A stretch of 64,000 nucleotides of DNA. It comes from an uncultured Eubacteriales bacterium. Its GTDB lineage: Bacteria; Bacillota; Clostridia; Oscillospirales; CAG-272. Made by a program: the position numbers and the translations under genes. Below, one piece after another: positions 46,467 to 63,830 of this stretch. A model generated the notes under the pieces. The model saw nothing but the letters and a program-made list of their open reading frames with translations, was not told the DNA's origin and did not search any database. Positions within the stretch are counted from its first letter, which is position 1. Each line of letters opens with the position of its first letter. The stretch is from assembly GCA_905187695.1 (NCBI GenBank), contig CAJJIY010000003.1, forward strand, positions 4,812-68,811, read 5' to 3'.

Positions 46467-46669
46467 GAATTCTCCTTTCGGGTATCCGGCAGTCGGATAT
46501 TCTACCCTTATATTATAATATCCGCACGGAAAAAAGTCAACCCCGGCGCAGGGTTTCCTGTCTTCCTTCTTATTCCGGACAAAAGAAAAAATGCCGGGCG
46601 CACCGGATATCAAACCCAAGGGAAAAATTCCCGGCGCCGGGAAAAAAAGCTGTTTTTTCATGGAAAATG

Positions 46670-46726: not shown

Positions 46727-47572
46727 ATGGCAGAGAAGCCGAAAATGGAAGAGATCAAAGAATATATCGGGAGCAACGGATGTTCCGATACCGAACGGAT
46801 GATCGAGGCTCATTTTTTGGGTCTCAGGTCCGCCCCGTCTCTTTCTCTTGAGGACAGCCCGAAAACGTGCGTCTGCCCTCTTCCTTTAACCATCCCGGAA
46901 GCGTTTTCAAATGAAAAAATCCTTATAAACCGTACCGATACGGTAAATTGGGGACTTTTTGATGTATTGGTCGGTTCGGTGCGGAACGAGGCGCAATACC
47001 GTCATTGCCTTGCGGAAAACTATTATTATGTCCCCGCGAAATATCTGACAGACCGGCAGGATCCGATCCGTTATGTAGCCATGTATCATGCGTTGCGTTT
47101 CGGAGATCCCGGCATTCGTTATTACGGCAAAGTGATCCGGCGGGAATGCGTGCCGCGCCGGCAGGTGCCGTTTCCGGCCGCCCGTGCCAACGGCGAGGAG
47201 CCTTATGAAGTTTTCACGGTAAAAAGTTGGGAAGAACTGCCCCAAAAAATAAAGCCCTGCGGTCAGTCGGTATATGAGCCGCGGTTCACCAATCTTTTCT
47301 TGCTTCTGAATGTGCCGCGCACTTATGCACTTTTTATGATCAGAAGTGCGGAACAGTATGAAATTTTAAAGGAGTTGCGCCGCGCGGCAGCCAATCCGGG
47401 ACAGCTCGACGGTATCCGCCCGGTCGGCGCACGGCTGTGGGCACGGACCGCAGGCGGGTTCTTTGAACTGACGGATCGGACAGGGCGACCGCTTTGCCGT
47501 GTTTCGCTGGCGGAATTCCGCCGTGCCCCCGCCCGCGTCCTGCGCCGGATCTTTTCGACCCTTTCCGAATGA
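46727..47572 (+). CDS. Hypothetical protein
   Basis: 281 aa ORF with an AAGGAGG RBS and host-like G+C. No recognisable motifs. Confidence 0.5.
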   Translation: MAEKPKMEEIKEYIGSNGCSDTERMIEAHFLGLRSAPSLSLEDSPKTCVCPLPLTIPEAFSNEKILINRTDTVNWGLFDVLVGSVRNEAQYRHCLAENYYYVPAKYLTDRQDPIRYVAMYHALRFGDPGIRYYGKVIRRECVPRRQVPFPAARANGEEPYEVFTVKSWEELPQKIKPCGQSVYEPRFTNLFLLLNVPRTYALFMIRSAEQYEILKELRRAAANPGQLDGIRPVGARLWARTAGGFFELTDRTGRPLCRVSLAEFRRAPARVLRRIFSTLSE

Positions 47573-47594
47573 AAAAAGCCGCCGGGAAAGCGGA

Positions 47595-47612
47595 CTTCTC
47601 ATAAGGATGTTA
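47595..47612. repeat. Left terminal inverted repeat of the element
   Basis: CTTCTCATAAGGATGTTA, the exact reverse complement of 63902-63919. Preceded by GA at 47593-47594. Confidence 0.8.
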
Positions 47613-47827
47613 GAAAATATCCAATGAAAAGCCGATTGAGAGTGCCTAACGAAGAAAATCCATCATGGACAGTAGGTCTGTGATGGATTTTCTTTTTTCA
47701 TCCTTCAAAATTTGCGTCGGGGGAAACAAAGAATAGGCGCGGTGAAAAAATATTTTTATTTTTGAAAAAAGTCTGGACTTCTGCAACCTTCTGTGGTATT
47801 GTTGTGTGCTAACAGGAGGTACAGCCT

Positions 47828-48091
47828 ATGAAAAGCATTATTAACGAACTGTGGCACGGTAACATCATTCCGCAAGAGGACAGCCGAACAAATTCCAATG
47901 AGATGAAGCAACTCCTCAACTATATGGCAAGACATCACGAGGATCTCGAAAAGAGCTTCACGGACAATCAGAAGGAAGCATTCGAAAAGTTCCACGATTG
48001 CTTCAGCGAGTACATGGGCCTCGCTGAAGCTGCCATATTCGAATATGCCTTCAAATTCGGAATTCAAATTGTCGTAAACGCTCTATTGTAA
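47828..48091 (+). CDS. Small helical protein of unknown function (resembles small ORFs common on clostridial mobile elements)
   Basis: 87 aa with an AGGAGG RBS. MKSIINELWHGNIIPQED..; followed by a terminator. Confidence 0.5.
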   Translation: MKSIINELWHGNIIPQEDSRTNSNEMKQLLNYMARHHEDLEKSFTDNQKEAFEKFHDCFSEYMGLAEAAIFEYAFKFGIQIVVNALL

Positions 48092-48097
48092 AGCAAA

Positions 48098-48137
48098 AGC
48101 AAACCAACACGGATTACATAGTCTGTGTTGGCTTGCT
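48098..48137. terminator. Bidirectional terminator between convergent genes
   Basis: 13-bp arms agcaaaccaacac/gtgttggcttgct (12/13 paired), followed by TTTT. Confidence 0.6.
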
Positions 48138-48156
48138 TTTCTAATTTATACTTTGA

Positions 48157-49344
48157 TCAATCAATATTGCCCATCAAATTCACGCAATCGATGATTGCTT
48201 TACCACAAAAATCGAGATTACCATATGCCGTATGCCTTTGAGCTATGATTATAATATCACTATTTTGTATTACCACATTGACATCCATATTAGGAATATC
48301 TGAAATCATGTTCAGCGGAGAATTCACCTCATTAGCTAAAATACGATAGCCTTGATGTTGCAAATATTTGCATAGTGTGATACCACTACTTTCTCTGCAA
48401 TCCTCGCAGTTAGCTTTATAGCTAAGACCTAAAACGCCAATTATCTTCGAACTGTCTTCGCCAATCATCTGAATTGCTTTTTTGGCGATATAAATGGGTT
48501 TATAGTTATTGGCATCACGAGATGCCTTGATAAGAGAGGCATCGTCTCCAAATCTTTCAATTAAAAAATATGGGTCTACAGCTATGCAATGACCGCCGAC
48601 CCCACTTCCCGGTTGGAGAAGATTGCATCTTGGATGACGGTTAGCTATTTCAATCACTCGAAATGGATCAACGCCTTCTCGATCACACATGATGGAAAGT
48701 TGGTTGACAAATGCAAGTTCGACATCTCGATGAGCATTTTGAGTAAGCTTAACAAATTCTGCCGTTGAAATATCTGTTAATTCTTTTCTGCCAGTGTTAA
48801 TAAAATCATATATTTCCTTCGCTTTTTGAGCTGCAATTGGCGTCTTGCCTCCAAGAACGCGCGAGTTCGTTGCAATTTCGTGGAATATATTGCCCGGTAA
48901 AATAGATTCGGGGCAATAGCAATATAAAAAATCAACGCTTTCAGGCACCAAACATCTTAAAAGCTTGTAAAAGTTTTTGTTTGAGCCTATCGGAACTGTG
49001 GATTCCAAAATCACAAGATCTCCGTTTTTGATATGAGGCGCGAGTTCTGTCAGTGCCTTTTCCACAAAAGAATTGTCGGAAGAATAATCTGGATTTACGG
49101 GAGTTTGAACGGTGACGATGTATGTATCAGAATCAGTTATACTATCGGATACGAACAGTGTTTTTCCGAGAACATCATCAAGCGTTGCATCAAGTTCCGG
49201 CTCGGTATATGAATACTTCTTTTGCGTTAAAGTGTTAATCAATGATGGATTTTTATCTACACCAAATACTGTTACACCCGACTTGGCAAATGCACAAGCA
49301 ACGGGCAAACCAACATAGCCAAGACCTATTACGGATATATTCAT
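48157..49344 (-). CDS. wecC: UDP-N-acetyl-D-mannosamine (nucleotide-sugar) dehydrogenase, WecC/Cap5O-like
   Basis: 395 aa. NAD fold ISVIGLGYVGLPVA, plus ESTVPIGS and GGHCIAVDPYF. Confidence 0.85.
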   Translation of the reverse strand: MNISVIGLGYVGLPVACAFAKSGVTVFGVDKNPSLINTLTQKKYSYTEPELDATLDDVLGKTLFVSDSITDSDTYIVTVQTPVNPDYSSDNSFVEKALTELAPHIKNGDLVILESTVPIGSNKNFYKLLRCLVPESVDFLYCYCPESILPGNIFHEIATNSRVLGGKTPIAAQKAKEIYDFINTGRKELTDISTAEFVKLTQNAHRDVELAFVNQLSIMCDREGVDPFRVIEIANRHPRCNLLQPGSGVGGHCIAVDPYFLIERFGDDASLIKASRDANNYKPIYIAKKAIQMIGEDSSKIIGVLGLSYKANCEDCRESSGITLCKYLQHQGYRILANEVNSPLNMISDIPNMDVNVVIQNSDIIIIAQRHTAYGNLDFCGKAIIDCVNLMGNID

Positions 49345-50393
49345 GATTCACCTTCTTTCAAAATTACTTGCACGATTTGCTGCGCCGCATCTCCCTTGCC
49401 GTAATAATCAACATCCATATGTGTGGTTTGACGGCTTAGAAGTGATTTGAATTTACAGCAAAACTCTTCCGTCGGAGAAACAAGCTCCATAAAATCAAAG
49501 TTCGCTTTCCGTTCACTGACTTTACGAACTATCAACAGCTTTTTGGCGTTCAAAATACACTCTTCCTGGACTCCGCCGCTATCGGATATAACAATCTCAG
49601 ATGCAAGAAGCTGCTTGTAAAATTCATCCGAAGGAAGCGGGTTGCAAAGAACAACATTTGCGATACTGCCGAGGTATTTTTGTGCAAGCTTAGTTATAAC
49701 TGGGTTAGGATGTACTGGGAAAAGCCAATTGTAATCAGGATAGTCCTTCGCAAGCTCGGAGATCTGACCTAAGATTTTTTTGAGGTACGGAAGGTTCTCT
49801 CGCCTATGTAAAGTAATCAAAACCTGCTTCTTAACAGTGGATACAAAAGGTTTGTTTTGTGTTCTATAATCAACAAATGTGTTTCCCACAACGTGAATAC
49901 CGTTATCGGAAAAACCTTCTGCTAACAAATTGCGTTTTTCGTCTTCTGATGGACAAAAATGCAATGACGTCATCACAGATATCATACGGCGAAAGCTTTC
50001 TTCAGGATAAGGATTGCTTAAATCATATGTACGCATTCCGGCTTCAACGTGATAGACGGGAATTTGCCTCATGAATCCATATTCCGCTCCTGCCAAAGCA
50101 CTTAATGTATCGCCTTGAACAATCACGGCAAAATAGATGTTTTTTCCAAGAGCTGTATTCATTTGACTGAGCATCGCCGCTTTAGTATCTATCAAATCTT
50201 TGTATTGGCCACAGATGCACAATCTGTAATCAGGCTTAATATCTTCTGTGGTGAGCAGATCGTCGAGGATTGCATCGTGCTGATTTGTGTTCAACAAATC
50301 ATAGGGTATATTGTGATGCTTTAATTCCCTCATAACAGGGATCAATTTAATTGCTTCTGGACGCGTACCGAAAACAACGAGTATTTTGTTCAT
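49341..50393 (-). CDS. wecB: UDP-N-acetylglucosamine 2-epimerase (non-hydrolysing)
   Basis: 350 aa. The N-terminus KILVVFGTRPEAIKLIPV is the WecB signature. 4-nt overlap with wecC. Confidence 0.9.
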   Translation of the reverse strand: MNKILVVFGTRPEAIKLIPVMRELKHHNIPYDLLNTNQHDAILDDLLTTEDIKPDYRLCICGQYKDLIDTKAAMLSQMNTALGKNIYFAVIVQGDTLSALAGAEYGFMRQIPVYHVEAGMRTYDLSNPYPEESFRRMISVMTSLHFCPSEDEKRNLLAEGFSDNGIHVVGNTFVDYRTQNKPFVSTVKKQVLITLHRRENLPYLKKILGQISELAKDYPDYNWLFPVHPNPVITKLAQKYLGSIANVVLCNPLPSDEFYKQLLASEIVISDSGGVQEECILNAKKLLIVRKVSERKANFDFMELVSPTEEFCCKFKSLLSRQTTHMDVDYYGKGDAAQQIVQVILKEGES

Positions 50394-51517
50394 AGTAATT
50401 CCCTAATAAGTCTTTTTTGCTCGTGTGCCTCGGATAAGTAATCGACACTTCGAATTGCTTTTCTTGCTTGCACACTATAATAATCATGGGCTGTACAAAG
50501 CTCTATTAACTTTGATAAAAACGCTTCATGGTTTAAAACAAAGCTGATACCTTCGCCATCCGTTACATACTGCTTTACACATTCGAGATGATCAAAAACA
50601 ACAGTAGGAAGGCCACCTGCCATTCCTTCAAAAATACCTCTGCCATACGTTTCCCAATTGGAAACAGAAATATTGATATGTGCTCTGGCTATGAGTGCGG
50701 CAAGTTCTTTTTGCGGTAGAACACCGTGAAAAATTACTTTTTCGGATAATCCGTTAGCTGTAATATAAGTATGGCAGTCCGAAAGAACAGAATCATTTTG
50801 ATAGCTACCGGCAAGATGTAATCGTACGTCTATTGCGTGTTCAGATAACTCCTTAAGCAAAACAATAGCTTCTTTCGTGTTCTTTTGCTCCTTAATGGAT
50901 GCAATATAAAGTAATTCGATTGGAAAATGTGTTTGTTTTACGACAGGCTTAATATAAGATGAATAACCCCTTGGAATAACCTTGATCTTGTTTTCATCAA
51001 TTCCAAAAACACGAATCATATCCTGTTTTTCCGAATCACTCGGAGTTAAGATCTTGCCTGCGGAACAAAGAGCGCTGCACTCTTCTGCTATGTATTCATC
51101 AGGAGGATATTCTCCCGAGCGCTTATACGATGGAGAAAGATACATTGGAAACAGAACAATCTTGCTTCTTTCTTCTGCCGACAACCGTTCGATTCCAAAG
51201 GCTTTGCTGCAATGAGTTATAATAACCGTGTCATATGCAGCAATCTCTTTTCTCAGGCGTGAAAATAACTGCTCCTTGTTTGCGAGTCTGCGAGCAAACT
51301 TGTCGCTTAAATGATGCTCGTATGTTTCAAAAGAAACCTTTCGAACGCCCTCGATGACTTCAAATCCCTTGCGAGGTGTTCGGGTGAAAATAACATCTAA
51401 AATACAGTTGTATTTTAATGCCTGAATTAAGCTATATATTAAAATGCTTCCGCCGTCGGTATCATCACCAAAGCTTGGGAATTTACCCGTAAAAAGCAGT
51501 ACCTTTTTTAATTCCAT
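50390..51517 (-). CDS. Glycosyltransferase family 4 (GT-B)
   Basis: 375 aa. C-terminal motif ETYGRGIFEGMAGGLPTVVFD. Confidence 0.8.
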   Translation of the reverse strand: MELKKVLLFTGKFPSFGDDTDGGSILIYSLIQALKYNCILDVIFTRTPRKGFEVIEGVRKVSFETYEHHLSDKFARRLANKEQLFSRLRKEIAAYDTVIITHCSKAFGIERLSAEERSKIVLFPMYLSPSYKRSGEYPPDEYIAEECSALCSAGKILTPSDSEKQDMIRVFGIDENKIKVIPRGYSSYIKPVVKQTHFPIELLYIASIKEQKNTKEAIVLLKELSEHAIDVRLHLAGSYQNDSVLSDCHTYITANGLSEKVIFHGVLPQKELAALIARAHINISVSNWETYGRGIFEGMAGGLPTVVFDHLECVKQYVTDGEGISFVLNHEAFLSKLIELCTAHDYYSVQARKAIRSVDYLSEAHEQKRLIRELL

Positions 51518-52602
51518 AACAAAATATATTCCTCAAAAATTCGATCGAAAGAATACATAGTGATGTATTTTTCCGTATTTTGAATCAAAAGTTGTTTTTT
51601 GTTCAGCAGAGTATCAACAGCAACTGCCATCTCTTCTTCCGTATTAACGAGTGCGCCGTTCTCAGCACCGATATATTCGCTGACAGCTCCGCAATTTGTA
51701 ACAACTACAGGAACACCCGAACAGATAGATTCGAGCAGACTTCTTCCCATGCCTTCCGTGTGTATATAGCTTCCGCCCGGCACAGCCTTTTCGAGATCTG
51801 TGCTTGCCTGTGCATAAACATCCGCCGCCGCAATCAAAGCAACCGCATCCTTTTGCGCAAGATTGCCGAGAAAACGAATAGAATAAGGTTGGCTGTTAGC
51901 AAGCTCCTTCATCTCTGCTTCAAGCGGTCCATCACCTGCCAAAAGCAAAGTTACCGTGGCATTACATTTTGCGAGAGAGCGAATCAAAAAATCAGTTCTT
52001 TTATATGGAACAAATCTTGCGCAGCTGACACACAAATAGTCGGACGGTCCAATGCCATATTGTTTGCGAGTATCAGAGCGTTTTGCAATCGCTTCACGAA
52101 TTGTGTAAGGATCAATTCCACCAGCCACATGACGAAGAATAGATTGTTTGATGCCGAACTCAAGCAGCCTCCTGTCGGTAAAGTCACTATTGGTAATTAG
52201 ATAATCAATTGTGTTGTTGATTGCTTCACGCCAATACGCTTTCCTTTCGGCATAAACGGGTATATCAATGGTAAGCGGTGATTGAATAATCTCGTTACCG
52301 CCTGTGCGATAGGTCATTATGGCCGAGGGGAGCAATTCCCGAATGCGGTGCAATTTCTCAATCCAACGACCGCTATTAAAGAACAATACAGTTTTGTCGT
52401 TCTTGAATTTTGGTAAAAAGTCTTCAAGAGTAATATGTTTGATATATTGATAATCGGTATTTAACAAGATGTCTTTCCCATCAAGACGAGAAATGATATG
52501 TAATTCGTATTTGTTCTTGAAATACTGTGCGAAATAATGCGCGTGTGTTTCCATACCGCCTATTAACGGTGGAAGCCTGTCCGCAAAAAGGATTATTTTC
52601 AT
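51508..52602 (-). CDS. Glycosyltransferase family 4 (GT-B; MshA/BshA-like N-terminus)
   Basis: Start at ATG 52602 (MKIILFADRLPPLIGGMETHAHYF). Contains EGMGRSLLESICSGVPVVV. Confidence 0.8.
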   Translation of the reverse strand: MKIILFADRLPPLIGGMETHAHYFAQYFKNKYELHIISRLDGKDILLNTDYQYIKHITLEDFLPKFKNDKTVLFFNSGRWIEKLHRIRELLPSAIMTYRTGGNEIIQSPLTIDIPVYAERKAYWREAINNTIDYLITNSDFTDRRLLEFGIKQSILRHVAGGIDPYTIREAIAKRSDTRKQYGIGPSDYLCVSCARFVPYKRTDFLIRSLAKCNATVTLLLAGDGPLEAEMKELANSQPYSIRFLGNLAQKDAVALIAAADVYAQASTDLEKAVPGGSYIHTEGMGRSLLESICSGVPVVVTNCGAVSEYIGAENGALVNTEEEMAVAVDTLLNKKQLLIQNTEKYITMYSFDRIFEEYILLWN

Positions 52603-53273
52603 AATATCTCCAATTTTCTGAGTGCTACAGAGATTCCGTCCTCTCCGGCAGTCGTTGTAGTGATTGTGGCAACGGCGCAAACCTCTTTGGGCGCGCCTCC
52701 CATTGCTACGGAAATATCGGCACTCTTGAGCATCTCTATATCGTTATATCCATCGCCAAAAGCGATTATGTTTTTTGTGGAAATACCCAATTCGCGGCAT
52801 ACGATACCAAGTCCGTTGGGTTTAGTAATATTTTTAGGTGTAATGTCTATGTTGCCGCTTTGCTCCCATATATACGATTGGTATGCATCGTTAACAACAA
52901 ATCGCTCCTTCGCACAAGGCAACTCCAAAGCATAAATTGTTCCGTCATAAGAATAATCAACCACAGAAACACCGCACGTCTTTGCTTGATGCTTAATATC
53001 TGCGACTATATTTGGGTGGAGAGGTTGCGAAAATACGACACAATCTCCTATTTTTACGAGTCCGCCATTCATTAAAACGAGAAAGTCAAATTGAAATTGA
53101 GCGAGAATCGGCGCAAGCATTTCCTCGGTACGCAATGTGGAAAGCCCGAGAATATAACCTTTTTCTCTCAATGCGTTCAAATCGGAAAGGACTTGATTCG
53201 AAATGAAAATACCGCGCTTTGTTTCAATCAATGTGTTTCCTACGTCAAATACGATTAGCTTTTTGTTTCTCAT
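52599..53273 (-). CDS. HAD-IIB (Cof-like) hydrolase with an atypical motif I
   Basis: 224 aa. IVFDVGNTL occupies the DxDGT position. The C-terminus AFGDGYNDIEML is the Cof-type motif IV. Confidence 0.7.
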   Translation of the reverse strand: MRNKKLIVFDVGNTLIETKRGIFISNQVLSDLNALREKGYILGLSTLRTEEMLAPILAQFQFDFLVLMNGGLVKIGDCVVFSQPLHPNIVADIKHQAKTCGVSVVDYSYDGTIYALELPCAKERFVVNDAYQSYIWEQSGNIDITPKNITKPNGLGIVCRELGISTKNIIAFGDGYNDIEMLKSADISVAMGGAPKEVCAVATITTTTAGEDGISVALRKLEIL

Positions 53274-53976
53274 AGTACTGCTTCAAATTCAAAAATTCAA
53301 TGTTGTTTTTATTTGCGTATGAGATAAGCTCTCCGAGAAAATCCGCCACACCATATGCATTGTTACGTAACTTACGAGCGTCTTCTGCAGAAAGCATACT
53401 GTATCGGGTTGCCGACATAGAATCCTTCAAACGGCGTATTGTTGAAAAATCACAGGAATTTAATACAAGGTGAATTGGATGAAAATTAAACACATAGACA
53501 GCATCTCTATGCATCCTTTTCAAAATATCGTCAAGCCTTGGTACTCCGTGATACTTTAAATATCCTCCGTCTTCAAAGAAAATAGGTATCTGCAAAATAC
53601 CGCATCTATCCCAAAATGGAGCAATGCTTACAAGATCTGTGCAAATATTTGATGCATAGGAAAAGCCACGATTGGCGAATTCCTCCTCAATGTCGTTAGA
53701 AGAATAATATTTATGGCATCTGAATCCAACGGCATCCCCGTAAAATTGTTCAATGGTGGAAAAAACCTCGCTCATGGAACCACCATGCGTGCTTTGAGCG
53801 CAAAAATTAGGGTGAGGTTCAGTCTCCCACCAAGTATTCTCGCACACTGCTTTATCAAGATATTCCGACCTTCCCGTCATGAAAATTGTAAGGGGGAGTT
53901 CTTTTAACGGACGGTATGCAATATCCAAAAAATCATCACTGACAAAATCCACATCCGAGGTTAAAATAAAAGTCAT
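53245..53976 (-). CDS. Putative polysaccharide deacetylase-like (WbmS-like) protein
   Basis: 243 aa. The N-terminus ILTSDVDFVSDDF and overall size recall deacetylase-like proteins of O-antigen loci. The assignment is weak. Confidence 0.35.
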   Translation of the reverse strand: MTFILTSDVDFVSDDFLDIAYRPLKELPLTIFMTGRSEYLDKAVCENTWWETEPHPNFCAQSTHGGSMSEVFSTIEQFYGDAVGFRCHKYYSSNDIEEEFANRGFSYASNICTDLVSIAPFWDRCGILQIPIFFEDGGYLKYHGVPRLDDILKRMHRDAVYVFNFHPIHLVLNSCDFSTIRRLKDSMSATRYSMLSAEDARKLRNNAYGVADFLGELISYANKNNIEFLNLKQYYEKQKANRI

Positions 53977-54884
53977 ACAGTGCCTCCGATGGAATGATAT
54001 TTATCAATCATAGCACGGTCTATTGCGCATTTTTCGGCAAGCTCGTCCCAACCGCAGTAATTGGTTAAAATATCGCTAAGATGCCTTGTGCGCACACCGT
54101 TTTCGATAGTGAAATATTCTATTTTGCCGCTGTGAAGAAGATTAAACATTGTGTCTGTCATTAGCTTGTTATCTTTGAAGGAAAGTTCAATATCAGTATC
54201 CGACAATGCTATGCGAATTTTGTCAGCAATAGCAAAATACTTGTCATCTTCAATGGCATAAACCAAATCCTTTTCAGGTTGACCGTAAGTCATATATTGA
54301 TAGAACTTCCATCTTGACACACGGAATTCCTTGCAGCTTGCGATGTACTCGGCAAGCGGAACAAGACTGTCATAATTCACGGGAGTGATTACGCTGTGCA
54401 ACTTAAGATCAAAGCCTTTAGCAGTGAAATCCGCAAAGCGTTCGCGGAAACGGGAAACATAGTCGCGATACGGCCCCGTATTTCTTCCAATTTTACTTAG
54501 CACCGTCTCGTCAAGTGAATCGAGCGTAATGGTAATTCTATCAACAACGCCAACCAATTGCTCGGTAATATCAGGTGTCAGATTTACAGCATTTGAAAGC
54601 AACTCAACGCGAAGGTTATCTTCCTTGCTCTCGGATTTGAATTGTCGCAAATGACGGATAAGCTCCAAAAAATTCGTATTCTTAACTCCCCCAAGAACGG
54701 TGGGCTCTCCACCCGATATTGTGAGCTTTCTTACATGAAATTTCTCATAAAGATGCGTTACAAGCTCTTTAATCTTTTTCACAGGAAGCTCGGATGCAAT
54801 CGATTCAGGTGTCGTATCACGGAAGCAATAGCCGCAATTCAAGATGCATCTCGGAGTTGTCATATAATAGATGGAATAATACAT
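53973..54884 (-). CDS. Viperin-like radical SAM enzyme (pVip-like)
   Basis: 303 aa. CILNCGYCF is a CxxxCxxC cluster. Segment-by-segment resemblance to viperin/RSAD2: LTISGGEP vs [24 protein letters not shown] vs [27 protein letters not shown] vs [19 protein letters not shown] vs [16 protein letters not shown] vs SNQKMKDS. Confidence 0.65.
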   Translation of the reverse strand: [303 protein letters not shown]

Positions 54885-54892
54885 TTTTACCT

Positions 54893-55462
54893 CTAATCCT
54901 CGATATACAAGTCACAGATCTCACGCATCTGTGCCTTTCTTTCTTCTGTGTGATGATCATTAACGCCGATCACAGTTGCATTCGCCAATTTAGCCGCGAT
55001 GCAATGTTTATAATTGTCGTCTATTAACAAAAGCAAAGGTTGTGAGTAATAAGCCTCATCCTTTCGCTCGTCACCGACAGTAATGATCTCATCAAAAATA
55101 TTGATGTTATAATGTGAAAGCCACTGCCGAACAAGCTCACTTGGTTCTCGGGTGATAATAGTTATTTTACTACCGATAGGCAAAGAGCGAACAGTTGACA
55201 ATACGAGTTCTTTTGGAGCATGCTTGACGTATGCGAGTTTAGCACACTCTAACAGTTCGTTAGCGCATTCTCCAAGTTGGGAGTTGATAAGTCCTTGCCA
55301 TTCTGCAAAGGTACATTTATCGAATGAATCAATTGTTGATACAGAGGGCTGCTGTTTTTTTCGTTCACACAAAAGCAGATATGCCTCTATCCAACAACCA
55401 TTGGAGTCTATGAGCGTGCCGTCGAAATCGACAAGCGTTGTTTTTATGTGTGTTGATATCAT
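54893..55462 (-). CDS. HAD-superfamily phosphatase (canonical DxDGT)
   Basis: 189 aa. Motif I LVDFDGTLIDS and a late LLLIDD motif. Confidence 0.75.
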   Translation of the reverse strand: MISTHIKTTLVDFDGTLIDSNGCWIEAYLLLCERKKQQPSVSTIDSFDKCTFAEWQGLINSQLGECANELLECAKLAYVKHAPKELVLSTVRSLPIGSKITIITREPSELVRQWLSHYNINIFDEIITVGDERKDEAYYSQPLLLLIDDNYKHCIAAKLANATVIGVNDHHTEERKAQMREICDLYIED

Positions 55463-55794
55463 AATTCAACCACCGTAACACCGTTATTGCACACACGCAT
55501 GAGCTGTTCAAGCTCTTGATACTTGTTTTTTAACTCCAAAGCCTTGAAATTAAAGAGAGTAAAGTCCTCACCAAAGATTACGGTCTTGACCTTGCCGTTC
55601 CGCTCCTGTGCTTTCAACCATTGACGGGCTTTTTCGCATATAGCACCGCCTTTTCCGGTGCTTCCGTAGCCATGTATAATTAACACGCACTGACACTTGT
55701 CTCGTTTAAGCTTCACAATAGAATCTTGTAAATATCTCATAGCATCCGCAACCAAAGGCATATCTTGCTTAATATTGATTTCAGTATATTTCAT
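55459..55794 (-). CDS. Smr-like domain protein
   Basis: Start at ATG 55794, 5 nt after a GGAGG RBS. VLIIHGYGSTGKGG and the C-terminal NNGVTVVEL match Smr motifs. The N-terminal LDLHG motif is not conserved. Confidence 0.55.
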   Translation of the reverse strand: MKYTEINIKQDMPLVADAMRYLQDSIVKLKRDKCQCVLIIHGYGSTGKGGAICEKARQWLKAQERNGKVKTVIFGEDFTLFNFKALELKNKYQELEQLMRVCNNGVTVVEL

Positions 55795-55845
55795 AATATC
55801 CTCCGCCAAATCGTATTTGCTTCGGGATACAAATATCCATTAAAA

Positions 55846-55874
55846 ATTATATCACAAAATTATTAACAAATCAA
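55846..55874 (-). promoter_or_regulatory. Extended -10 consensus promoter of the 9-gene cargo operon
   Basis: Minus strand: -35 TTGATT (55874-55869), 17-nt spacer, TGaTATAAT with the -10 hexamer at 55851-55846. Confidence 0.55.
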
Positions 55875-55889
55875 TGTATTTCACAATAC

Positions 55890-55918
55890 TTGACAAATTT
55901 TGCAAAAGGTGCTATAAT
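55890..55918 (+). promoter_or_regulatory. Perfect consensus sigma-A promoter, divergent from the cargo operon promoter
   Basis: -35 TTGACA (55890-55895), 17-nt spacer, -10 TATAAT (55913-55918). Confidence 0.6.
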
Positions 55919-56138
55919 AATCGGCGAGCCATTTGAAGCATCCTTGGCAACAGGGATAGCACGGTGCGTTTTAACGCAGCGCATCGAGCCATTCGGATGG
56001 TGAAATTGAATATTTTCATAAAATCAGATGACCGCTAAAAGCGGTAAAGTAGGTCAATGCGGGGATCTTTGACCGAAACTGTATGTCTCTTAAACAGAGG
56101 TTTTTGTAAAATGTATGAAGAAAGAAATGAGGTACATT

Positions 56139-56462
56139 ATGACACAAAACCGCACCGATTTAGGAAAAGTTGTAGGGGCAAATTTAAGGCGTCTGATTAA
56201 AGGGTCAGCGTACCGTACGCAAGCGGAATTTGCCTATGCATTCGGCGTCGACGAGCGAACCGTCAGAAGATGGGTGAGCAGTGGGATCGAAAAGGTCTAC
56301 ATCATCGACGAAATCGCGCACTTCTTTAAGATAGACCGCATGAACCTCCTCTCAGAACGAGAGGAGGTTTCTCCTTTTTATAGGACAAAACGTGTCCTAA
56401 CACTTTCTCATAATATCTGCTATAATGTTATTCGTCAAAGGCGTTCATTGAAAATAGAATAG
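56139..56462 (+). CDS. XRE-family helix-turn-helix regulator
   Basis: Start at ATG 56139, after a GAGG RBS. LRRLIKGSAYRTQAEFAYAFGVDERTVRRWVSSG fits an HTH_XRE fold. The C-terminal third is doubtful because a terminator-like hairpin lies inside it. Confidence 0.6.
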   Translation: MTQNRTDLGKVVGANLRRLIKGSAYRTQAEFAYAFGVDERTVRRWVSSGIEKVYIIDEIAHFFKIDRMNLLSEREEVSPFYRTKRVLTLSHNICYNVIRQRRSLKIE

Positions 56463-56475
56463 TCGAAGGAGGAGC

Positions 56476-57288
56476 GTGGAATCGACGGATTCCTTTGACA
56501 AAATGTATTATGAGAAAGGAAAAAGATGTATGACAAATAGCAAATATTACAGAGTTGGAGCATTTTTTAGAAGCGAGGATAGCAAGCAGATTATCATTCA
56601 GGTTCATGACCGTAAGGAGGCAGAAGCATGGGTGCCTCGAGTCAAGGAGATGCTCTATCCCGGCGAGAACACAGAAAATTACAGAGTGAGCATTTTTGAG
56701 TTCAAGTTGCAGATAAATCTGAGCAATCTGAACCATTATCGAATCACCGTTGAACGCCCAGTAAAACGCGAGTTTAAGAATTGGGAAGAAGAAAACATCT
56801 ACGATAACTCACTTGCCTTTGATGGCATTGTAGAAGCTGAAGATGAGGAAAGCGCCAAGAGTAAATTTATCGAAGAATGGTTCGAGTTTTATTCACTTGG
56901 TAAAAAGCCGGAAGAGTATGACCTGTATGTAGATGAAGTTCCGGTGAAGGAACTGATTGAAAAGGAGCAAAGAATGCTTCGTCAAAGGCTCATAAGCAGC
57001 TATGCTCGTGATCGTTACGGCGATATGCCGGTTCGAGAATTCTGCAAAATGATGAGGCAGGATGAATCTCCCGAGAAGGATAAGATGTTTTATGAAGAAC
57101 TCAAAAATCATCTGCATCGCCTCCGCATCGTGGAATATCTTGAAAAAAGGTTAGACCTTGAACGGATCACGCACGCAGAGTTCAATCGAATTTGTGACGA
57201 GTTGTGTGCGGCAAAAGTTGGTGACGAATTTGAAAGAATTAAGCGTGCCGCAACTGAGAAATACGGAAAGGAAGGTATAACCGATTGA
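56476..57288 (+). CDS. Hypothetical protein (acidic, helical, no recognised domain)
   Basis: 270 aa ORF with a GTG start after an AGGAGG RBS. Alternative ATG starts at 56503 and 56530. Confidence 0.45.
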   Translation: MESTDSFDKMYYEKGKRCMTNSKYYRVGAFFRSEDSKQIIIQVHDRKEAEAWVPRVKEMLYPGENTENYRVSIFEFKLQINLSNLNHYRITVERPVKREFKNWEEENIYDNSLAFDGIVEAEDEESAKSKFIEEWFEFYSLGKKPEEYDLYVDEVPVKELIEKEQRMLRQRLISSYARDRYGDMPVREFCKMMRQDESPEKDKMFYEELKNHLHRLRIVEYLEKRLDLERITHAEFNRICDELCAAKVGDEFERIKRAATEKYGKEGITD

Positions 57289-57315
57289 AATATTTATTTT
57301 TTGATATAGAGTGTG

Positions 57316-57340
57316 CAGATGGTGGTAAAGCCACCATCTG
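57316..57340 (+). terminator. Hairpin terminator abutting the IS insertion
   Basis: 10-bp stem cagatggtgg/ccaccatctg with a 5-nt loop. The downstream T-run is probably displaced by the IS. Confidence 0.45.
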
Positions 57341-57341
57341 T

Positions 57342-58931
57342 CAGTCTGTCGAAAAACGGTCATCAAGGGAAAGTCGAGAAGGGATTTTTGGAAAATAGAC
57401 GAGAGAAAAAGGAGAAAAAAGCAAAGAAATCGGAGGGATGGTTATCTCTCCACTTTCTTTTTGCGAATTTTTTGAGATTCATGGCAGCAAATTTAAGCCT
57501 TACCCAATTAGAGACTTGGGCGAGGCCGCGGTAGGGTGTATAACGCATCGCGTGTTTTTCTTTTGCATCCGCAAAGACCCGTTCAATGGTTTCTTTGCGT
57601 TGCTTGTAAAGGTCGGCATACTTGGGAGTATAGCGTGCGTCATCGGCAAGCTCTTCGTAATCCTTCCAAATATGCCTTTGTACGACCTTCACAGAATCCT
57701 TGGAATGTGTGCAAAGATGTCTTTTCGGGCAATTCTTACATATTTCGGGATTGCTCTTGTATTCTCTGTATCCGTCTCGATTGGTCGTACTGTATGTAAG
57801 CGTATGGTACTCAGGACAAATGATGCAATCGTAATACTCATCGTATTCGTACTTCCACCATTCGTGTCCGCCGTCCATTGTTTGAGGTCTTTTGTATGCC
57901 GTACTGAGAACACGATTGTTATCAAATACCTTTTTGCAAATATGGGGAGTTTTGTAAGCACTGTCTGCTACAATGGTTTCTACCTCGGGAAACCTTTCGG
58001 TCACTTTTTCATATACGTCATCAAATGCTACGCTATCATGTACGTTGCCGGGAGTTATTATGGTTTCCAGTATATATCCGTGCTTATCACATGCGGTGTG
58101 TGCTTCGTATGCGAATTGTCTTTTGTGGTCGCCTTTTACGAAAAGTCCGCTGTCGGGGTCAGTTACACTTTGGATAACTGTCTTCATCTTTTTGCGGCGA
58201 GCTAATTTCTTCTTTGATGTATTCTTATTCGGCTTTGAGGGTTTGGGAGGCTCATTGTTGTGATGCTCGTCCTCAAACGGCTTTTTGCCGTGCTCCTCTC
58301 GGTCGGCATTGACCTCTTCCATCAGTTCCTTTGCATATCTTTTCGATGCTACGGGTACTTCTGCTTGTATCTTCTTTTTGTTGTTTGCGTTTGCCTTGAT
58401 GTGTGTGCCGTCGATGAATACCGCTGTGGGCGACAGATATCCCGCTTCCGCTATTTCGTTCAAGATCCAAGAAAATATCTGATCCACCGTTTCGCTTGTA
58501 AATCTGTGCCTGAAATTGTAGCTGAGTGTGGAAAAATGAGGCGTTTCATCCTGTAATCCATGCCCCAGAAACCAACGGTACGCCATATTCACTTTTACCT
58601 CTGATGCCGTTCTTCTCAGCGAAGGCAATCCGTACAGATGCTGGATCAACACCATTTTGACCGGCACTACGGGATCAATACTCGGTCTGCCATTGTCTTC
58701 ACTATACAGATCTTCTACCATCCCATAGAGCTTGTCAAAATCTACTGCAGCTTCAATCTTCCTGAGCAGATGATCCTTCGGTACAAGGTCTTCCAATCAT
58801 ACCATTGCCATGATATCTCTTCCGTTTTGCCCCTTGCTTAACATTTCTTCACCGCCTGTCTTTTCTCTCCTCTATTTTACCATATTCTAAGCAAAAAAGC
58901 CACCTTATATGGTGACTTTTTCGACAGTCTG
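57342..58931 (-). mobile_element. IS1182-family insertion sequence (about 1.6 kb)
   Basis: Terminal inverted repeats CAGTCTGTCGAAAAA (57342-57356) and TTTTTCGACAGTCTG (58917-58931) match at 14/15 positions and enclose a single DDE transposase gene. Confidence 0.8.
57363..58796 (-). CDS. IS1182-family DDE transposase (N-terminus interrupted by an in-frame TGA)
   Basis: 477 aa from TTG 58796. LEDLVPKDHLLRKIEAAVDF..RPSIDPVV..YGLPSLRR is the typical IS1182 N-terminal region. 15 further in-frame codons, MLSKGQNGRDIMAMV, lie upstream of the TGA at 58799-58797. Confidence 0.85.
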   Translation of the reverse strand: MEDLVPKDHLLRKIEAAVDFDKLYGMVEDLYSEDNGRPSIDPVVPVKMVLIQHLYGLPSLRRTASEVKVNMAYRWFLGHGLQDETPHFSTLSYNFRHRFTSETVDQIFSWILNEIAEAGYLSPTAVFIDGTHIKANANNKKKIQAEVPVASKRYAKELMEEVNADREEHGKKPFEDEHHNNEPPKPSKPNKNTSKKKLARRKKMKTVIQSVTDPDSGLFVKGDHKRQFAYEAHTACDKHGYILETIITPGNVHDSVAFDDVYEKVTERFPEVETIVADSAYKTPHICKKVFDNNRVLSTAYKRPQTMDGGHEWWKYEYDEYYDCIICPEYHTLTYSTTNRDGYREYKSNPEICKNCPKRHLCTHSKDSVKVVQRHIWKDYEELADDARYTPKYADLYKQRKETIERVFADAKEKHAMRYTPYRGLAQVSNWVRLKFAAMNLKKFAKRKWRDNHPSDFFAFFSFFSRLFSKNPFSTFP

Positions 58932-59103
58932 AGGGTGGGGTTTTTCCCCCAGCCTACTTTTTAAACGAATCTAACATCTCTATGCGGTCTGGATCAAATC
59001 ATCCCAGCCCACTTTTTTGTGTGATTTGGTTGTGGCCCCAAGGGCCACGACCACATTAAAAGTCGAAACATTATGGGCGCTCAAAAAAATTTTGCAAAAA
59101 TAT

Positions 59104-59176
59104 GAAACATTTTGTTCCAAACCTATTGACAAGAGGAAAATCCTGTGTTATAATGTCGAATGGAACAATTTGTTCC
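59104..59176 (+). promoter_or_regulatory. Consensus promoter flanked by two 15-bp palindromic operator candidates
   Basis: GAAACATTTTGTTCC (59104-59118); -35 TTGACA (59126-59131); 17-nt spacer; -10 TATAAT (59149-59154); GGAACAATTTGTTCC (59162-59176, a 7+1+7 palindrome). Confidence 0.6.
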
Positions 59177-59187
59177 AAGGAGAAGCG

Positions 59188-59808
59188 ATGAGTAGAACTG
59201 CCGATTCGAAAAAGCAGATCATCCTTGACTTCATCAACGAATACTACGGAAGCTGCGGTGAAACGCCCACAGTGCGTGACATCGCAGCAGGGACAGGTAT
59301 TGCCGTTACGAGCGTACATCGTTATCTTTCTGCCATGAAAGAAGACGGCGAGCTGGAATACAACGGTCGCCGTTCCGTCAGCACTCGCCGCATGGAGATG
59401 GAGCAGGTCGCTCACGCCATGCCCGTGCTTGGCTACGTAGCCTGCGGAGAAGGTCAGGAAGAAACCGAGCAGGTCATCGAATACATTCGCATGCCCGAAT
59501 CCTTGGTTGGCAAGGGCGAATTCTTTGCGCTGATTGCAAAGGGCGAATCGATGATCGACGCAGGGATTCATCCCGGCGATTACGTGATGATCCGCAAGCA
59601 GAACACCGCAGAGATCGGTGACATTGTCGTTGCACTTGATGGGGGACTCAACAACCTGAAAGTCCTCGGCTTCAACAATGCCAAGGGCAGATATTTCCTC
59701 CGCTCCTGCAACGAGGACAAAGAACGCTATGGTGACATCTATCCCAAAGAACTCCGGATCCAGGGCGTTGCCGTTTGTGTTGCACACAGGCTCAAAAAGA
59801 CGCTGTAA
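59188..59808 (+). CDS. LexA-like S24 autopeptidase repressor
   Basis: Start at ATG 59188. The N-terminal winged helix resembles LexA (KKQIILDFINEYYG..PTVRDIAAGTGIAVTSVHRYL). PVLGYVACGEG is the cleavage region. GESMIDAGIHPGDYVMI carries the Ser and NNLKVLG the Lys. Confidence 0.8.
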   Translation: MSRTADSKKQIILDFINEYYGSCGETPTVRDIAAGTGIAVTSVHRYLSAMKEDGELEYNGRRSVSTRRMEMEQVAHAMPVLGYVACGEGQEETEQVIEYIRMPESLVGKGEFFALIAKGESMIDAGIHPGDYVMIRKQNTAEIGDIVVALDGGLNNLKVLGFNNAKGRYFLRSCNEDKERYGDIYPKELRIQGVAVCVAHRLKKTL

Positions 59809-60469: not shown

Positions 60470-60790
60470 ATGGACAATCAAGACACTAAAAGTTCAATCA
60501 TTGCATTCAGAGTCACGCCCGAGGAAAGAGCGTGGATCGAGAAATATTCCTACGGTAATTATCGCGTCATCAGCGATTTTGTTCGGGATTGTATCTTCGA
60601 AAAAGACATCGTTATCGTCAAAGGCCTCGATGAATTCTCAAATGAATTACGGCGCATCGGGAACAATCTCAACCAGCTCACACGAACTGTCAACGCAGGG
60701 TACGTCCGCGCTGTTGACCTCACCGAAACCAAGGAGGAGGTGGAAAAACTGTGGCAATCGTTAAATTCGTTACTGCGCGATGCCCTATGA
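60470..60790 (+). CDS. mobC: MobC-family relaxosome accessory protein
   Basis: 106 aa. Hallmark ELRRIGNNLNQLTRTVN. N-terminal RHH-like segment. Confidence 0.8.
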   Translation: MDNQDTKSSIIAFRVTPEERAWIEKYSYGNYRVISDFVRDCIFEKDIVIVKGLDEFSNELRRIGNNLNQLTRTVNAGYVRAVDLTETKEEVEKLWQSLNSLLRDAL

Positions 60791-61737
60791 ATAATATCTT
60801 TCCGTATGTGATGAATCCCAAGAAAACGGATGGCGGTGTCCTCGTCTCAGGCATCAATTGTATGCCCGAAACCGCGCTGAATGAATTCCGTTTTGTCAAA
60901 AATAAATTCGGCAAGACAGACGGCAGACAGTACTATCATATCGTGCAATCCTTCAGTCCGGACGATAATCTTGACGCTGAAACCGCCCATGAGATTGGTC
61001 TGAAGTTTGCCGAATTCTTTCCCGGATATCAGATTGTAGTCGCCAGCCATTGCAATACTTCACACCTCCACAACCACATCATAATGAACTCCGTGAACAT
61101 GGAAAACGGCAAAAAGTTTCACCAAACAGCACGCGAGCTGGCGCGGGTAAAGGAATATTCCAACAAGCTTTGTCAGGAGTATGGGCTCTCGGTTACCGAG
61201 GTGAAATCCTCCGCTCAGCTGTACCACAAGTGGAAGGATATGCTTATCAGAAAGGCCTTTTTCATTGCCAATCGCACACGTTCCAAGGAAGAATTCATCT
61301 GGGAGATGGAGATGCACGGCTACAAGGTTGACTGGAAGGACAACCATAAGTATATCACTTTAACCACGCCCGACGGTCATAAATGCCGTGACAACAAGCT
61401 CTTTGCAGAGCAGCTCCTGCGAAAGAATCTGGAGATCTACTATCTCCTCGGCGGTTGTGAATCGGGGCTTGCGGATCAGTACAAGTCGTATGTCAACGAC
61501 CTTCGACCTGAACACAGCTACACGGTGGGCGACGGACTCTTCAATCTTTTGAAAAATCTGCTCGAAACCATGCCCTACGATGAATTATTCACCCCGCCGG
61601 TTGAAGACCATCAGCTCGACAAAATGACTGTGATGATGCTGGAGATGATGGGCATCAAGGTCGAGCCTAAAGCTCTCATTTACTATTCCGCTAATAATCA
61701 GCAGGAGGAAGAACAAGGCTATGGACTTTGGATGTAA
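60751..61737 (+). CDS. Relaxase/mobilisation nuclease (MobA/VirD2-type)
   Basis: 328 aa. QYYHIVQSFSPDD and the histidine triad HCNTSHLHNHIIMNSV. Overlaps mobC. Confidence 0.85.
   Translation: MAIVKFVTARCPMNNIFPYVMNPKKTDGGVLVSGINCMPETALNEFRFVKNKFGKTDGRQYYHIVQSFSPDDNLDAETAHEIGLKFAEFFPGYQIVVASHCNTSHLHNHIIMNSVNMENGKKFHQTARELARVKEYSNKLCQEYGLSVTEVKSSAQLYHKWKDMLIRKAFFIANRTRSKEEFIWEMEMHGYKVDWKDNHKYITLTTPDGHKCRDNKLFAEQLLRKNLEIYYLLGGCESGLADQYKSYVNDLRPEHSYTVGDGLFNLLKNLLETMPYDELFTPPVEDHQLDKMTVMMLEMMGIKVEPKALIYYSANNQQEEEQGYGLWM

Positions 61738-62144: not shown

Positions 62145-63830
<1,686 letters not shown>

Follow-up and report, generated by a model that had tools for sequence, protein, structure and literature searches.

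The DNA analyzed here (the window) is a stretch of 64,000 nucleotides (nt) from an uncultured Eubacteriales bacterium (GenBank assembly GCA_905187695.1, contig CAJJIY010000003.1, positions 4,812 to 68,811), which carries a gene for a radical S-adenosylmethionine (rSAM) protein with the fold of viperin (RSAD2). The protein is probably a repurposed relative of viperin and not the antiviral viperin itself, because hallmark catalytic residues are lacking and because the gene family is constantly placed in a mobile sugar cassette. The gene reads from ATG to stop at 53973..54884 on the minus strand and encodes 303 amino acids (aa), exactly the open reading frame (ORF) named in an earlier note on this DNA, which had given no strand; stops occur throughout the plus strand of the same interval. 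The product matches Pfam Radical_SAM (5.6e-18) and contains the cluster motif C13-x3-C17-x2-C20 and the SAM motif S57-G-G-E60. In an alignment of 40 members of the rSAM family, C13, C17, Y19, C20, and S57-G58-G59-E60 are invariant, and the core is of the viperin type with respect to both the aromatic residue (Y19) ahead of the third cysteine and the GGE motif. Beyond CxxxCxxC, no cysteine is conserved in the 40-member alignment, the C-terminal part included, and a second cluster of the MoaA or SPASM type is therefore absent.

The operon and its island

The rSAM gene is part of a tightly packed, co-directional operon on the minus strand, in which five junctions are 4-nt ATGA overlaps. The sugar-nucleotide and glycosyltransferase (GT) context described in the earlier note was borne out. 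A HAD_2-type phosphatase with a canonical DFDGT motif (189 aa; 54893..55462; Pfam HAD_2) lies on the 5' side of the rSAM gene. On the 3' side, the next gene, whose start shares 4 nt with the rSAM stop, encodes a WbmS-like protein (PF22537; 243 aa; 53245..53976; Pfam 2.2e-26) with a CE4-related metal-hydrolase fold. It is followed by a Cof-type phosphatase fold of the HAD-IIB class (224 aa; 52599..53273; Pfam Hydrolase_3 3.5e-37, NCBIfam Cof subfamily) and two GT4 glycosyltransferases, GT4a (364 aa; 51508..52602; Pfam Glycos_transf_1) and GT4b (375 aa; 50390..51517; Pfam Glycos_transf_1 and Glyco_transf_4). The start of GT4a is taken to be the ATG at 52602, the listed ORF start (TTG, 52680) being probably too far upstream. 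The last two genes encode WecB, a non-hydrolyzing UDP-N-acetylglucosamine 2-epimerase (350 aa; 49341..50393; TIGR00236, 250.8 bits with a cutoff of 210), and a WecC-like UDP-N-acetylmannosamine (UDP-ManNAc; more generally, nucleoside diphosphate-sugar) 6-dehydrogenase (395 aa; 48157..49344). The latter scores above the cutoff of TIGR03026 (328 bits) and below the equivalog cutoff of the specific UDP-ManNAc dehydrogenase model (306 bits). A 12-bp inverted repeat just 3' of the WecC stop (48104..48131) is a possible operon terminator. The nine cassette proteins of the window are all devoid of transmembrane-grade hydrophobic segments.

The first gene of the operon has a TTG start and encodes a 116-aa Smr-domain protein (55459..55809, minus; Pfam Smr 2.9e-7), and its stop overlaps the HAD_2 start by 4 nt, an arrangement of translational coupling. 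Directly 5' of this gene lies a promoter-like site, TTGATT-17-TATAAT with a TG element (55846..55874, minus), which is a consensus match only; the count of such sites in the region does not exceed the expectation from shuffled sequence. The Smr gene stands beside the cassette only in the closest relatives (loci L001, L002, and L009), as a lineage-specific accessory, and its product has no obvious role in a sugar pathway.

The G+C content is 0.40-0.42 over positions 48000-58000 versus 0.56-0.60 in the host flank to the left, where ordinary host genes are found, i.e., those of a BspA-type leucine-rich repeat (LRR) protein, a ComM-like Mg-chelatase, adenylosuccinate lyase, and pyrimidine-nucleoside phosphorylase. 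To the right, the island adjoins a mobile module composed of an IS1182-family transposase (57363-58796, minus; 408 bits), a LexA-like S24 peptidase/helix-turn-helix repressor (59017-59808), MobC/NikA (60470-60790), a MobA/VirD2 relaxase (60751-61737), and a large serine recombinase with DUF4368 (62166-63830); the right-hand end of the element falls beyond the window. Since the low-GC island adjoins mobile-element genes on one side and host genes on the opposite side, an integrative mobilizable element of a Clostridia genome probably carries the cassette as cargo. No tRNA gene, and hence no tRNA integration site, was detected over the whole window, and an Rfam scan over 47000-59000 returned nothing, no riboswitch included.

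Several further features of the island were recorded. The BspA-type LRR gene (45177-46661, minus; LRR_5, 8.7e-55) stands where the G+C content falls, on the host side, and next to it two ORFs without matches (46727-47572, plus; 47756-48067, minus) span the left island boundary. Between the operon and the transposase, the interval 55890-56462 contains a perfect sigma-70 consensus on the plus strand (TTGACA-17-TATAAT plus TG, 12/12) that faces away from the operon, and a strong terminator-like hairpin lies about 420 nt downstream of it (56342-56370), inside a predicted ORF (56115-56462). Neither this ORF nor the adjacent one (56476-57288) has a Pfam, NCBIfam, or PADLOC match, and Rfam has no match in the region; a small transcript, or else a regulator acting on the island, could originate from the interval 55890-56462.

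Relationship to viperins

The resemblance of the rSAM protein to viperin is a genuine homology over the full length. The translation contains all eight segments that the earlier note had set against human viperin, in the order given there, and the viperin segments quoted in that note agree with retrieved viperin sequences; the size also fits prokaryotic viperins (pVips), with 303 aa versus about 300 aa. BLASTP against the viperin of Nematostella gave 25% identity over 219 aa (E 1e-10), the top NCBIfam match was NF038283 "viperin_w_prok" (2e-23), and two PADLOC pVip models matched with 9.6e-26 and 3.3e-23. Searching the Protein Data Bank (PDB) with phmmer retrieved the fungal viperin-like protein 9DFN (1e-9), mouse viperin (2e-6), Nematostella viperin (3e-6), and MoaA (1e-4), and a profile of the 40 family members reached about 1e-15 for viperins (9DFN, 1.3e-15) and 7e-12 for MoaA. 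The profile-profile comparison suggested in the earlier note, performed with hhalign against 20 canonical viperins, was highly significant (probability 99.95%, E 5.5e-38) and extended over 269 aligned columns, corresponding to residues 3-298 of the rSAM protein, with 22% identity. An AlphaFold (AF2) model built from the family alignment (predicted local distance difference test [pLDDT] 91, predicted template-modeling score [pTM] 0.88) was compared with the PDB by Foldseek, and ranks 1-18 were occupied exclusively by viperins and viperin-like proteins (template-modeling score [TM] 0.69-0.84 over about 260-310 columns; normalized TMq 0.67-0.76, TMt up to 0.84), versus a TM of 0.53 for MoaA. According to the AF2 model, Foldseek, and hhalign, the viperin fold is preserved along the entire protein, down to the C-terminal extension that covers the nucleotide. 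Viperin was the best match with all methods used, and the outcome that would have spoken against the proposal of the earlier note, i.e., best hits to unrelated rSAM families and no viperin alignment, did not occur.

The second-best match was MoaA in both NCBIfam and the PDB (59.5 bits; 48 with the profile), many SPASM models responded weakly, and some family members have been named "MoaA" by annotators of the Joint Genome Institute; a word-based search had retrieved only 65 relatives, none of them informatively named. An assignment as a MoaA-type cofactor enzyme or as a SPASM/twitch peptide maturase is nevertheless extremely improbable. The MoaA match of 59.5 bits contrasts with a cutoff of 284 bits and covers only the N-terminal rSAM core (residues 10-202), all SPASM models remain at or below 40 bits with cutoffs of 265-650 and are likewise confined to the core, and the fold similarity to MoaA is 0.53 versus about 0.75 for viperin. 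Only three cysteines are conserved and leave no second cluster, and neither Moa genes nor genes for precursor peptides are located nearby.

The earlier designation as a prokaryotic viperin held for descent and failed for the family in the strict sense, as judged by score cutoffs, phylogeny, and active-site residues. The curated thresholds were clearly missed (NF038283, 83.0 bits versus a cutoff of 180; TIGR04278, 38.0 versus 450). On a hidden Markov model (HMM) made in this analysis from 13 mostly eukaryotic viperins, the bit scores are 35-80 for members of the rSAM family, 36 for MoaA of E. coli, and 150-266 for true pVips. An exhaustive hmmsearch with the family profile over 1.84 billion representative proteins (50%-identity clusters) revealed about five full-length clusters at 325-463 bits, followed by two proteins with 140 and 120 bits and then by a continuum at 110 bits or less. 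This "halo" amounts to 935 representatives with E values of up to 1e-10; when ten members of the continuum were scanned with the viperin model, nine halo proteins scored 117-166 bits, which is below the curated cutoff, and one true viperin 271. The halo proteins (P0196-P0332) probably constitute further unexplored viperin-like families. In 79 halo sequences, the position of N77 is a cysteine in 70% and E293 is not conserved; the nearest outgroup, P0196, is encoded on a short contig with unannotated neighbors.

A neighbor-joining (NJ) tree was calculated over 276 columns of 129 sequences (17 members of the family, 79 from the halo, 32 canonical viperins, and, as the root, MoaA of E. coli) and recovered the rSAM family as monophyletic in 60/60 bootstraps. 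The family branches below all canonical viperins and was found within the clade of their most recent common ancestor in 0/60 bootstraps, so that the phylogenetic placement recommended in the earlier note did not nest the protein inside the viperins. The rSAM family is a separate, rare, and sharply bounded sister family of viperins. For its recognition we propose a score of at least about 325 bits to the family profile (A1), a WbmS-like gene immediately 3', and the signature Y-x-M before the cluster loop, K-x-H-S-V, W-K-F-x-Q-Y, and F-K-D-N-K-x-M, all of which are found for the rSAM protein of the window. In passages of recent surveys, viperins are delimited by trees rooted on MoaA, and these passages do not mention a relative in a sugar cassette (10.1101/2023.09.13.557418, Shomar et al.; PMC10732462); likewise, no published description of the cassette was found in the literature searched on viperin-like proteins, WbmS, and ComB. 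Compared with MoaA, the rSAM family offers a much closer root for the viperin tree, which helps to ask whether the antiviral synthesis of 3'-deoxy-3',4'-didehydro-nucleoside triphosphates (ddhNTPs) arose from a biosynthetic enzyme.

The active site was compared at signature columns, derived empirically as positions conserved in at least 85% of 32 canonical viperins (mouse numbering), and the result agrees with the independent hhalign alignment. The rSAM family has kept the three cysteines, GGE, N158, D182, V224, N229, M298, and S301. Invariant or nearly so are also the residues of the phosphate cradle and the RWKxxQ motif, namely, R194 (R134 in the rSAM protein), K220 (K161), W246-K247 (W192-K193), and Q250 (Q196), and partly kept are K120 (K53, Lys in 59%) and R245 (position 191, Arg or Lys). 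In contrast, the N-x-H motif is replaced (N77 by Y6 and H79 by M8; in the family Y6-Y7-M8 with 88% Tyr and 88% Met), N222 has become an invariant histidine (H163), E293 an invariant lysine with reversed charge (K237), Y302 a methionine (M246; Leu/Met in the family), and R347 a tyrosine (Y296). The replaced residues are conserved in 91-100% of canonical viperins: H79 is invariant and N77 present in at least 90% (n=20), and E293, Y302, and R347 reach 100% (n=32; invariant also among the 20). The inspection of nucleotide-binding residues called for in the earlier note, carried out on the alignment, thus turned out negative for N-x-H, E293, Y302, and R347, with the phosphate cradle left in place. 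We take the retained basic residues to be the triphosphate cradle common to viperin and MoaA, and the lost ones are presumably found near the ribose and the C-terminal lid. To judge from this pattern, the protein may still bind a substrate that carries a phosphate or a nucleotide, in a pocket rebuilt at the site of chemistry. On a speculative note, the invariant lysine in place of Glu293 could fit an anionic group such as a uronate carboxylate.

The same residues bear on the possibility that the protein is a very divergent viperin and still a ddhNTP synthase, the phosphatases and GT4s of the cassette converting its product with sugars of the N-acetylmannosaminuronic acid (ManNAcA) type into a nucleoside-antibiotic-like compound that is antiviral or antimicrobial and is exported or stored. 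In favor of this reading, viperin is the best match in every search, the phosphate-cradle residues are kept, and a natural fungal viperin-like enzyme without the equivalent of His79 has been crystallized with CTP (9DFN; F40H variant, 9DFU). It has to accommodate, however, that N77, H79, E293, Y302, and R347 are all replaced, E293 even by an invariant lysine, and that the family scores about as MoaA does on the viperin HMM. Together with the partner genes considered below, we regard it as an unlikely alternative.

Conservation and partners of the cassette

A scan of 185,579 species genomes detected 47 family loci, and 50 loci from genomes and metagenomic contigs were analyzed by tblastn and de novo clustering of the flanking ORFs. 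One of the closest relatives (L009) is a 5.3-kb contig of an uncultured Clostridia bacterium with 99% identity. GT4b was found in 49 of the 50 loci, GT4a, the WbmS-like gene, and the rSAM gene in 48 each, WecB in 33, a ComB-like protein of the 2-phosphosulfolactate-phosphatase family (PF04029) in 32, WecC in 24, an MsbA-like ABC exporter in 13-14, a separate Cof-HAD gene in 10, and HAD_2 in 9, the latter in loci of type A (see below). Where a core gene is missing, the contig ends or the ORF is broken, and no other recurring neighbor is present in more than four loci. In about 48 of the 50 loci, the rSAM gene is located beside the WbmS-like gene, together with GT4a, GT4b, and HAD-IIB. The WbmS-like gene is the most tightly linked partner; in most of its 48 loci it lies about +0.8 kb from the rSAM gene, or about +1.5 kb where HAD_2 is located in between.

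According to the PADLOC models, viperins are either solitary or adjacent or fused to a nucleotide kinase. The rSAM family shows neither of these contexts, and a conserved nucleotide kinase or peptide gene was not found in the 50 loci. The genomic context that the earlier note had called atypical is thus indeed atypical for pVips, and it is no oddity, since it is conserved in about 48 of the 50 loci and defines a separate family. These observations effectively refute a solitary antiviral pVip that came to lie beside unrelated sugar genes by chance: the PADLOC matches of 1e-23 to 1e-26 would be compatible with it, but the recurrence of the same neighbors in many phyla, two gene orders, and several fusions, as well as the failure of the curated viperin thresholds and residue tests, makes it very improbable.

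Two gene orders can be distinguished. Type A (rSAM, [HAD_2], WbmS-like, HAD-IIB, GT4a, GT4b, WecB, [WecC]) is present in Firmicutes, Mollicutes, Bacteroidota, Thiomargarita/Parabeggiatoa, and one member of the Pacearchaeota. Type B ([WecC, WecB], GT4a, GT4b-HAD-IIB fusion, rSAM, WbmS-like, then a convergent ComB-like gene) occurs in Chlamydiae, Rickettsiales, Holosporales, Legionellales, Mycoavidus, Cardinium, Myxococcota, Longimicrobium, and others. In type-B loci (L014-L054), the ComB-like gene lies about +1.45 kb from the rSAM gene on the opposite strand. HAD_2 and the ComB-like gene never co-occur in one locus, which suggests a non-orthologous displacement at a single phosphatase step. The MsbA-like half-transporter (ABC_membrane plus ABC_tran, about 587 aa) is variable in position. 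The parts of the cassette are physically or functionally coupled through gene fusions, i.e., of HAD_2 with rSAM (P0003, 496 aa), HAD-IIB with rSAM (P0194), HAD-IIB with GT4a (L004, 619 aa), GT4b with HAD-IIB (about 550 aa, in most type-B loci), and GT4 with GT4 (L062, 12324-14510, 728 aa), the last of which has a weak precomputed match to PF20706 "GT4-conflict."

The taxonomic distribution leans strongly toward bacteria that live inside cells, obligately or as endosymbionts, and about 23 of the 37 type-B loci stem from obligate or facultative intracellular lineages. The tally of intracellular organisms and endosymbionts (L015-L054) includes 12 Chlamydiae, 6 of the Rickettsiales/Holosporales/Caedibacter type, 2 Mycoavidus, Cardinium, Legionellaceae, and Francisellaceae. 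The copies of Thiomargarita and of the DPANN archaeon (Pacearchaeota, L055) have the gene order and partner identities of the Bacteroidota type, which is indicative of transfer across phyla. The rSAM gene was absent from plasmid and phage collections, and no near-identical DNA was detected in E. coli genomes. The "aminoglycoside" cluster of Rickettsia buchneri, which encodes 2-deoxy-scyllo-inosose synthase, aminotransferases, and a PIG-L deacetylase (PMC8770908), was considered as an identity of the cassette and rejected on account of its different gene content.

With respect to the partner proteins, the only PDB sequence match of the WbmS-like protein is the WbmS structure 3HFT of Bordetella (E 1e-7; fold TM 0.76), and its similarity to CE4 deacetylases is remote (TM 0.4-0.48). 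D8, D10, H55, H64, H88, E135, D136, H166, and H169 are invariant, and this constellation of Asp, His, and Glu residues identifies it as probably a metal-dependent hydrolase. WbmS-like paralogues with about 36% identity are encoded, without an rSAM gene, in conventional polysaccharide loci together with DegT aminotransferases, epimerases, GT2/GT4 enzymes, and acetyltransferases; the WbmS-like fold therefore normally serves amino-sugar or nucleotide-sugar chemistry. Among solved structures, GT4a is closest to PimB' (3OKA, 63 bits) and then to BshA, and GT4b to SdgB; weak NCBIfam matches include TuaC and GlcNAc-phosphatidylglycerol synthase. The HAD-IIB proteins differ between the two types. In the window, the motif reads F-D-V-G-N-T-L with Gly at the Asp+2 position, and all type-A proteins (window, L001, L004, L009-L011, L013, L019, L039, L045-L047, and L055) have F/L-D-[VI]-G-N-T-L, in which the nucleophilic Asp is kept and the general acid at Asp+2 is replaced by Gly. 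The fused HAD-IIB domains of type B have the canonical S-D-[FY]-D-G-T-L in 27 of 34 cases. Type-A HAD-IIB may thus have an altered chemistry, or the phosphatase role may have moved to HAD_2.

These partners are relevant for the two more serious alternatives. For a divergent ddhNTP synthase, the two phosphatases per cassette and the ABC exporter of 13-14 loci would suit the conversion of nucleotides into nucleosides and their export; also in its favor, the cassette is located on mobile elements and, in L001, L004, L062, and L038, beside restriction-modification (R-M) systems or helicases. The most tightly linked gene is, however, the sugar-type WbmS-like gene and not a kinase or nucleotidase, and HAD phosphatases cleave monoesters, with the cassette lacking an NTP pyrophosphatase. 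The second alternative is an ordinary locus for a surface polysaccharide or glycolipid, comparable to those for O-antigen, teichuronic acid, or enterobacterial common antigen (ECA), in which the rSAM enzyme makes an unusual sugar and completion and export take place elsewhere or via the MsbA-like protein. WecB and WecC would provide UDP-ManNAcA, from which ECA and teichuronic acid are classically built; the nearest solved relative of GT4a is the lipid-glycosylating PimB'; TuaC and GlcNAc-phosphatidylglycerol synthase are matched weakly; the name WbmS comes from an O-antigen locus; and MsbA-like exporters are present in 13-14 loci. Against such a locus, the surroundings of the cassette in the 50 loci contain no conserved flippase (Wzx), polymerase (Wzy), chain-length regulator (Wzz), or initiating phosphoglycosyltransferase, the compact unit is found on mobile elements and also in wall-less Mollicutes and reduced endosymbiont genomes, and fusions of HAD-IIB with GTs are typical of soluble glycoside pathways rather than of polymer assembly. 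We consider this possibility to be of similarly low probability.

Proposed pathway and comparison with known systems

The best explanation of the data, to which we assign a probability of about one half as a whole, is that the rSAM protein is an active single-cluster radical SAM enzyme that shares common ancestry with viperins, has kept the whole fold and part of the phosphate cradle, and has a rebuilt substrate pocket with which it would tailor a nucleotide-linked or phosphorylated sugar intermediate in a mobile cassette. The proposed pathway would start with the synthesis of UDP-ManNAc(A) by WecB and WecC. The rSAM enzyme and its translationally coupled WbmS-like partner would then tailor a nucleotide-linked or phosphorylated amino-sugar: as in viperin, a 5'-deoxyadenosyl radical might abstract hydrogen at a position adjacent to a hydroxyl, after which the intermediate would be dehydrated, deoxygenated, or epimerized, and the WbmS-like protein might act as a de-N-acetylase or hydrolase. 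The two GT4 enzymes could assemble a di-glycoside on a phosphorylated acceptor, which HAD-IIB plus HAD_2 or ComB-like phosphatases would dephosphorylate. The predicted product is a small glycoconjugate, soluble or lipid-anchored, with export by the MsbA-like ABC transporter in some lineages. Homology, fold, family boundaries, residue substitutions, conservation of the cassette, gene fusions, and mobility are direct observations, and it is the substrate, reaction, and product that we infer from them. The pathway is consistent with the cytoplasmic nature of the proteins, the conserved sugar neighbors, the gene fusions, the WbmS-like paralogues in polysaccharide loci, and the lack of partners with a defense model.

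Several observations weigh against the proposed tailoring role. The retained R194, K220, and K247 (and partly K120 and R245) are residues that we take to be NTP binding, and a free NTP as the substrate, even ddhNTP formation, is therefore possible. The tree is based on a distance method with MoaA as the single outgroup, and the basal place of the rSAM family may reflect long-branch attraction. The activity of WbmS is only putative for all members, 3HFT included, and the loss of Asp+2 makes the phosphatase role of type-A HAD-IIB uncertain. In about a third to half of the loci, WecB and WecC are missing from the flanks that were sequenced. Finally, several type-A loci are located beside R-M systems and helicases, which would fit a defense function as well. 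As a general feature, the R-M adjacency was rejected with only four independent loci flanked by R-M systems or helicases (L001, L004/5, L062, and L038), so that a defense island does not define the family; type-B genomes have housekeeping genes as neighbors. No partner protein matched a PADLOC model, and the cassette is therefore not a catalogued defense system. The flanks of L062 comprise HsdR/M/S and a 948-aa UvrD-like helicase.

An antiviral role might also be imagined in the form of a mobile, extended viperin system, in which a 3',4'-dehydration on a nucleotide or UDP-sugar leads to a glycosylated, exportable ddh-nucleoside that is secreted or stored as the pro-drug of a chain terminator. 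Intracellular symbionts (Chlamydiae, Rickettsiales, Holosporales, Cardinium, Mycoavidus, and Legionellales) and mobile elements of gut Firmicutes would use it to protect themselves or the host cell against viruses or competitors. This scenario is quite doubtful, more so than a divergent ddhNTP synthase. Independently of it, viperins may have their closest living outgroup in the rSAM family, which may preserve the metabolic role that gave rise to the antiviral one.

Returning to the tailoring of a sugar intermediate, the compact cassette with its distribution across phyla and its richness in intracellular hosts and mobile elements implies a selectable and portable product. The viperin scaffold would serve here not alone or with a kinase against viruses, as in the canonical setting, but as the central enzyme of a conserved pathway to a glycoside or glycoconjugate, which widens the known use of this fold. 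In practical terms, the PADLOC pVip match of 1e-26 means that automated defense annotation may call the rSAM protein a viperin, and the residue and context criteria given above allow such false calls to be filtered.

In comparison with known systems, MoaA (GTP 3',8-cyclase), the customary outgroup of viperins, has in common with the rSAM protein the core and counterparts of the basic residues K120, K220, and K247, which bind a nucleotide triphosphate, but it differs by a second C-terminal Fe-S cluster, the Moa operon, and a TM of only 0.53. DesII, AprD4, and BlsE are rSAM enzymes of glycoside and nucleoside pathways that abstract hydrogen next to a hydroxyl or amine and then dehydrate, deaminate, or decarboxylate. 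The analogy is functional only, the domain architectures and partners being different, and DesII is a weak fold match (TMq 0.54-0.59). A GT4 paired with HAD-IIB is also known from sucrose-phosphate synthase/phosphatase and from MshA/MshA2. The soluble-glycoside pathways of sucrose (sucrose-phosphate synthase/phosphatase), mycothiol (MshA/MshA2/MshB), and bacillithiol (BshA/BshB) resemble the cassette in their logic, in which a retaining GT4 uses an acceptor that is phosphorylated or small and a HAD phosphatase and a deacetylase-type step come next, and also in GT-phosphatase fusions and an entirely cytoplasmic location. Unlike them, the cassette probably uses UDP-ManNAc(A) as the donor, its deacetylase-like protein has the WbmS fold and not that of LmbE, and an rSAM enzyme is present. 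WbmS of Bordetella bronchiseptica (BB0128; 3HFT), the only solved relative of the WbmS-like protein (TM 0.76, 24% identity), is encoded in an O-antigen locus and has a putative activity. The second viperin-like enzyme of Trichoderma virens (9DFN and 9DFU) is similar in that the His of the N-x-H motif is naturally absent (Phe there), but it is eukaryotic, has been crystallized with CTP, clusters with viperins, and has no known sugar cassette. With viperins and pVips (RSAD2; NF038283, TIGR04278; 5VSL, 6Q2P, 7N7H, and 7N7I), the rSAM protein shares the single [4Fe-4S] cluster of CxxxCxxC, the GGE motif, the partial beta-barrel, the size of about 300 aa, and the full-length homology including the C-terminal extension. 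In contrast to viperins, it is only about 20-25% identical to them, forms a separate clade, is never solitary or kinase-linked, and always belongs to a cassette of GT4, HAD, WbmS-like, and WecBC proteins. We classify it as a viperin-fold rSAM enzyme recruited to, or ancestral within, a glycoside pathway.

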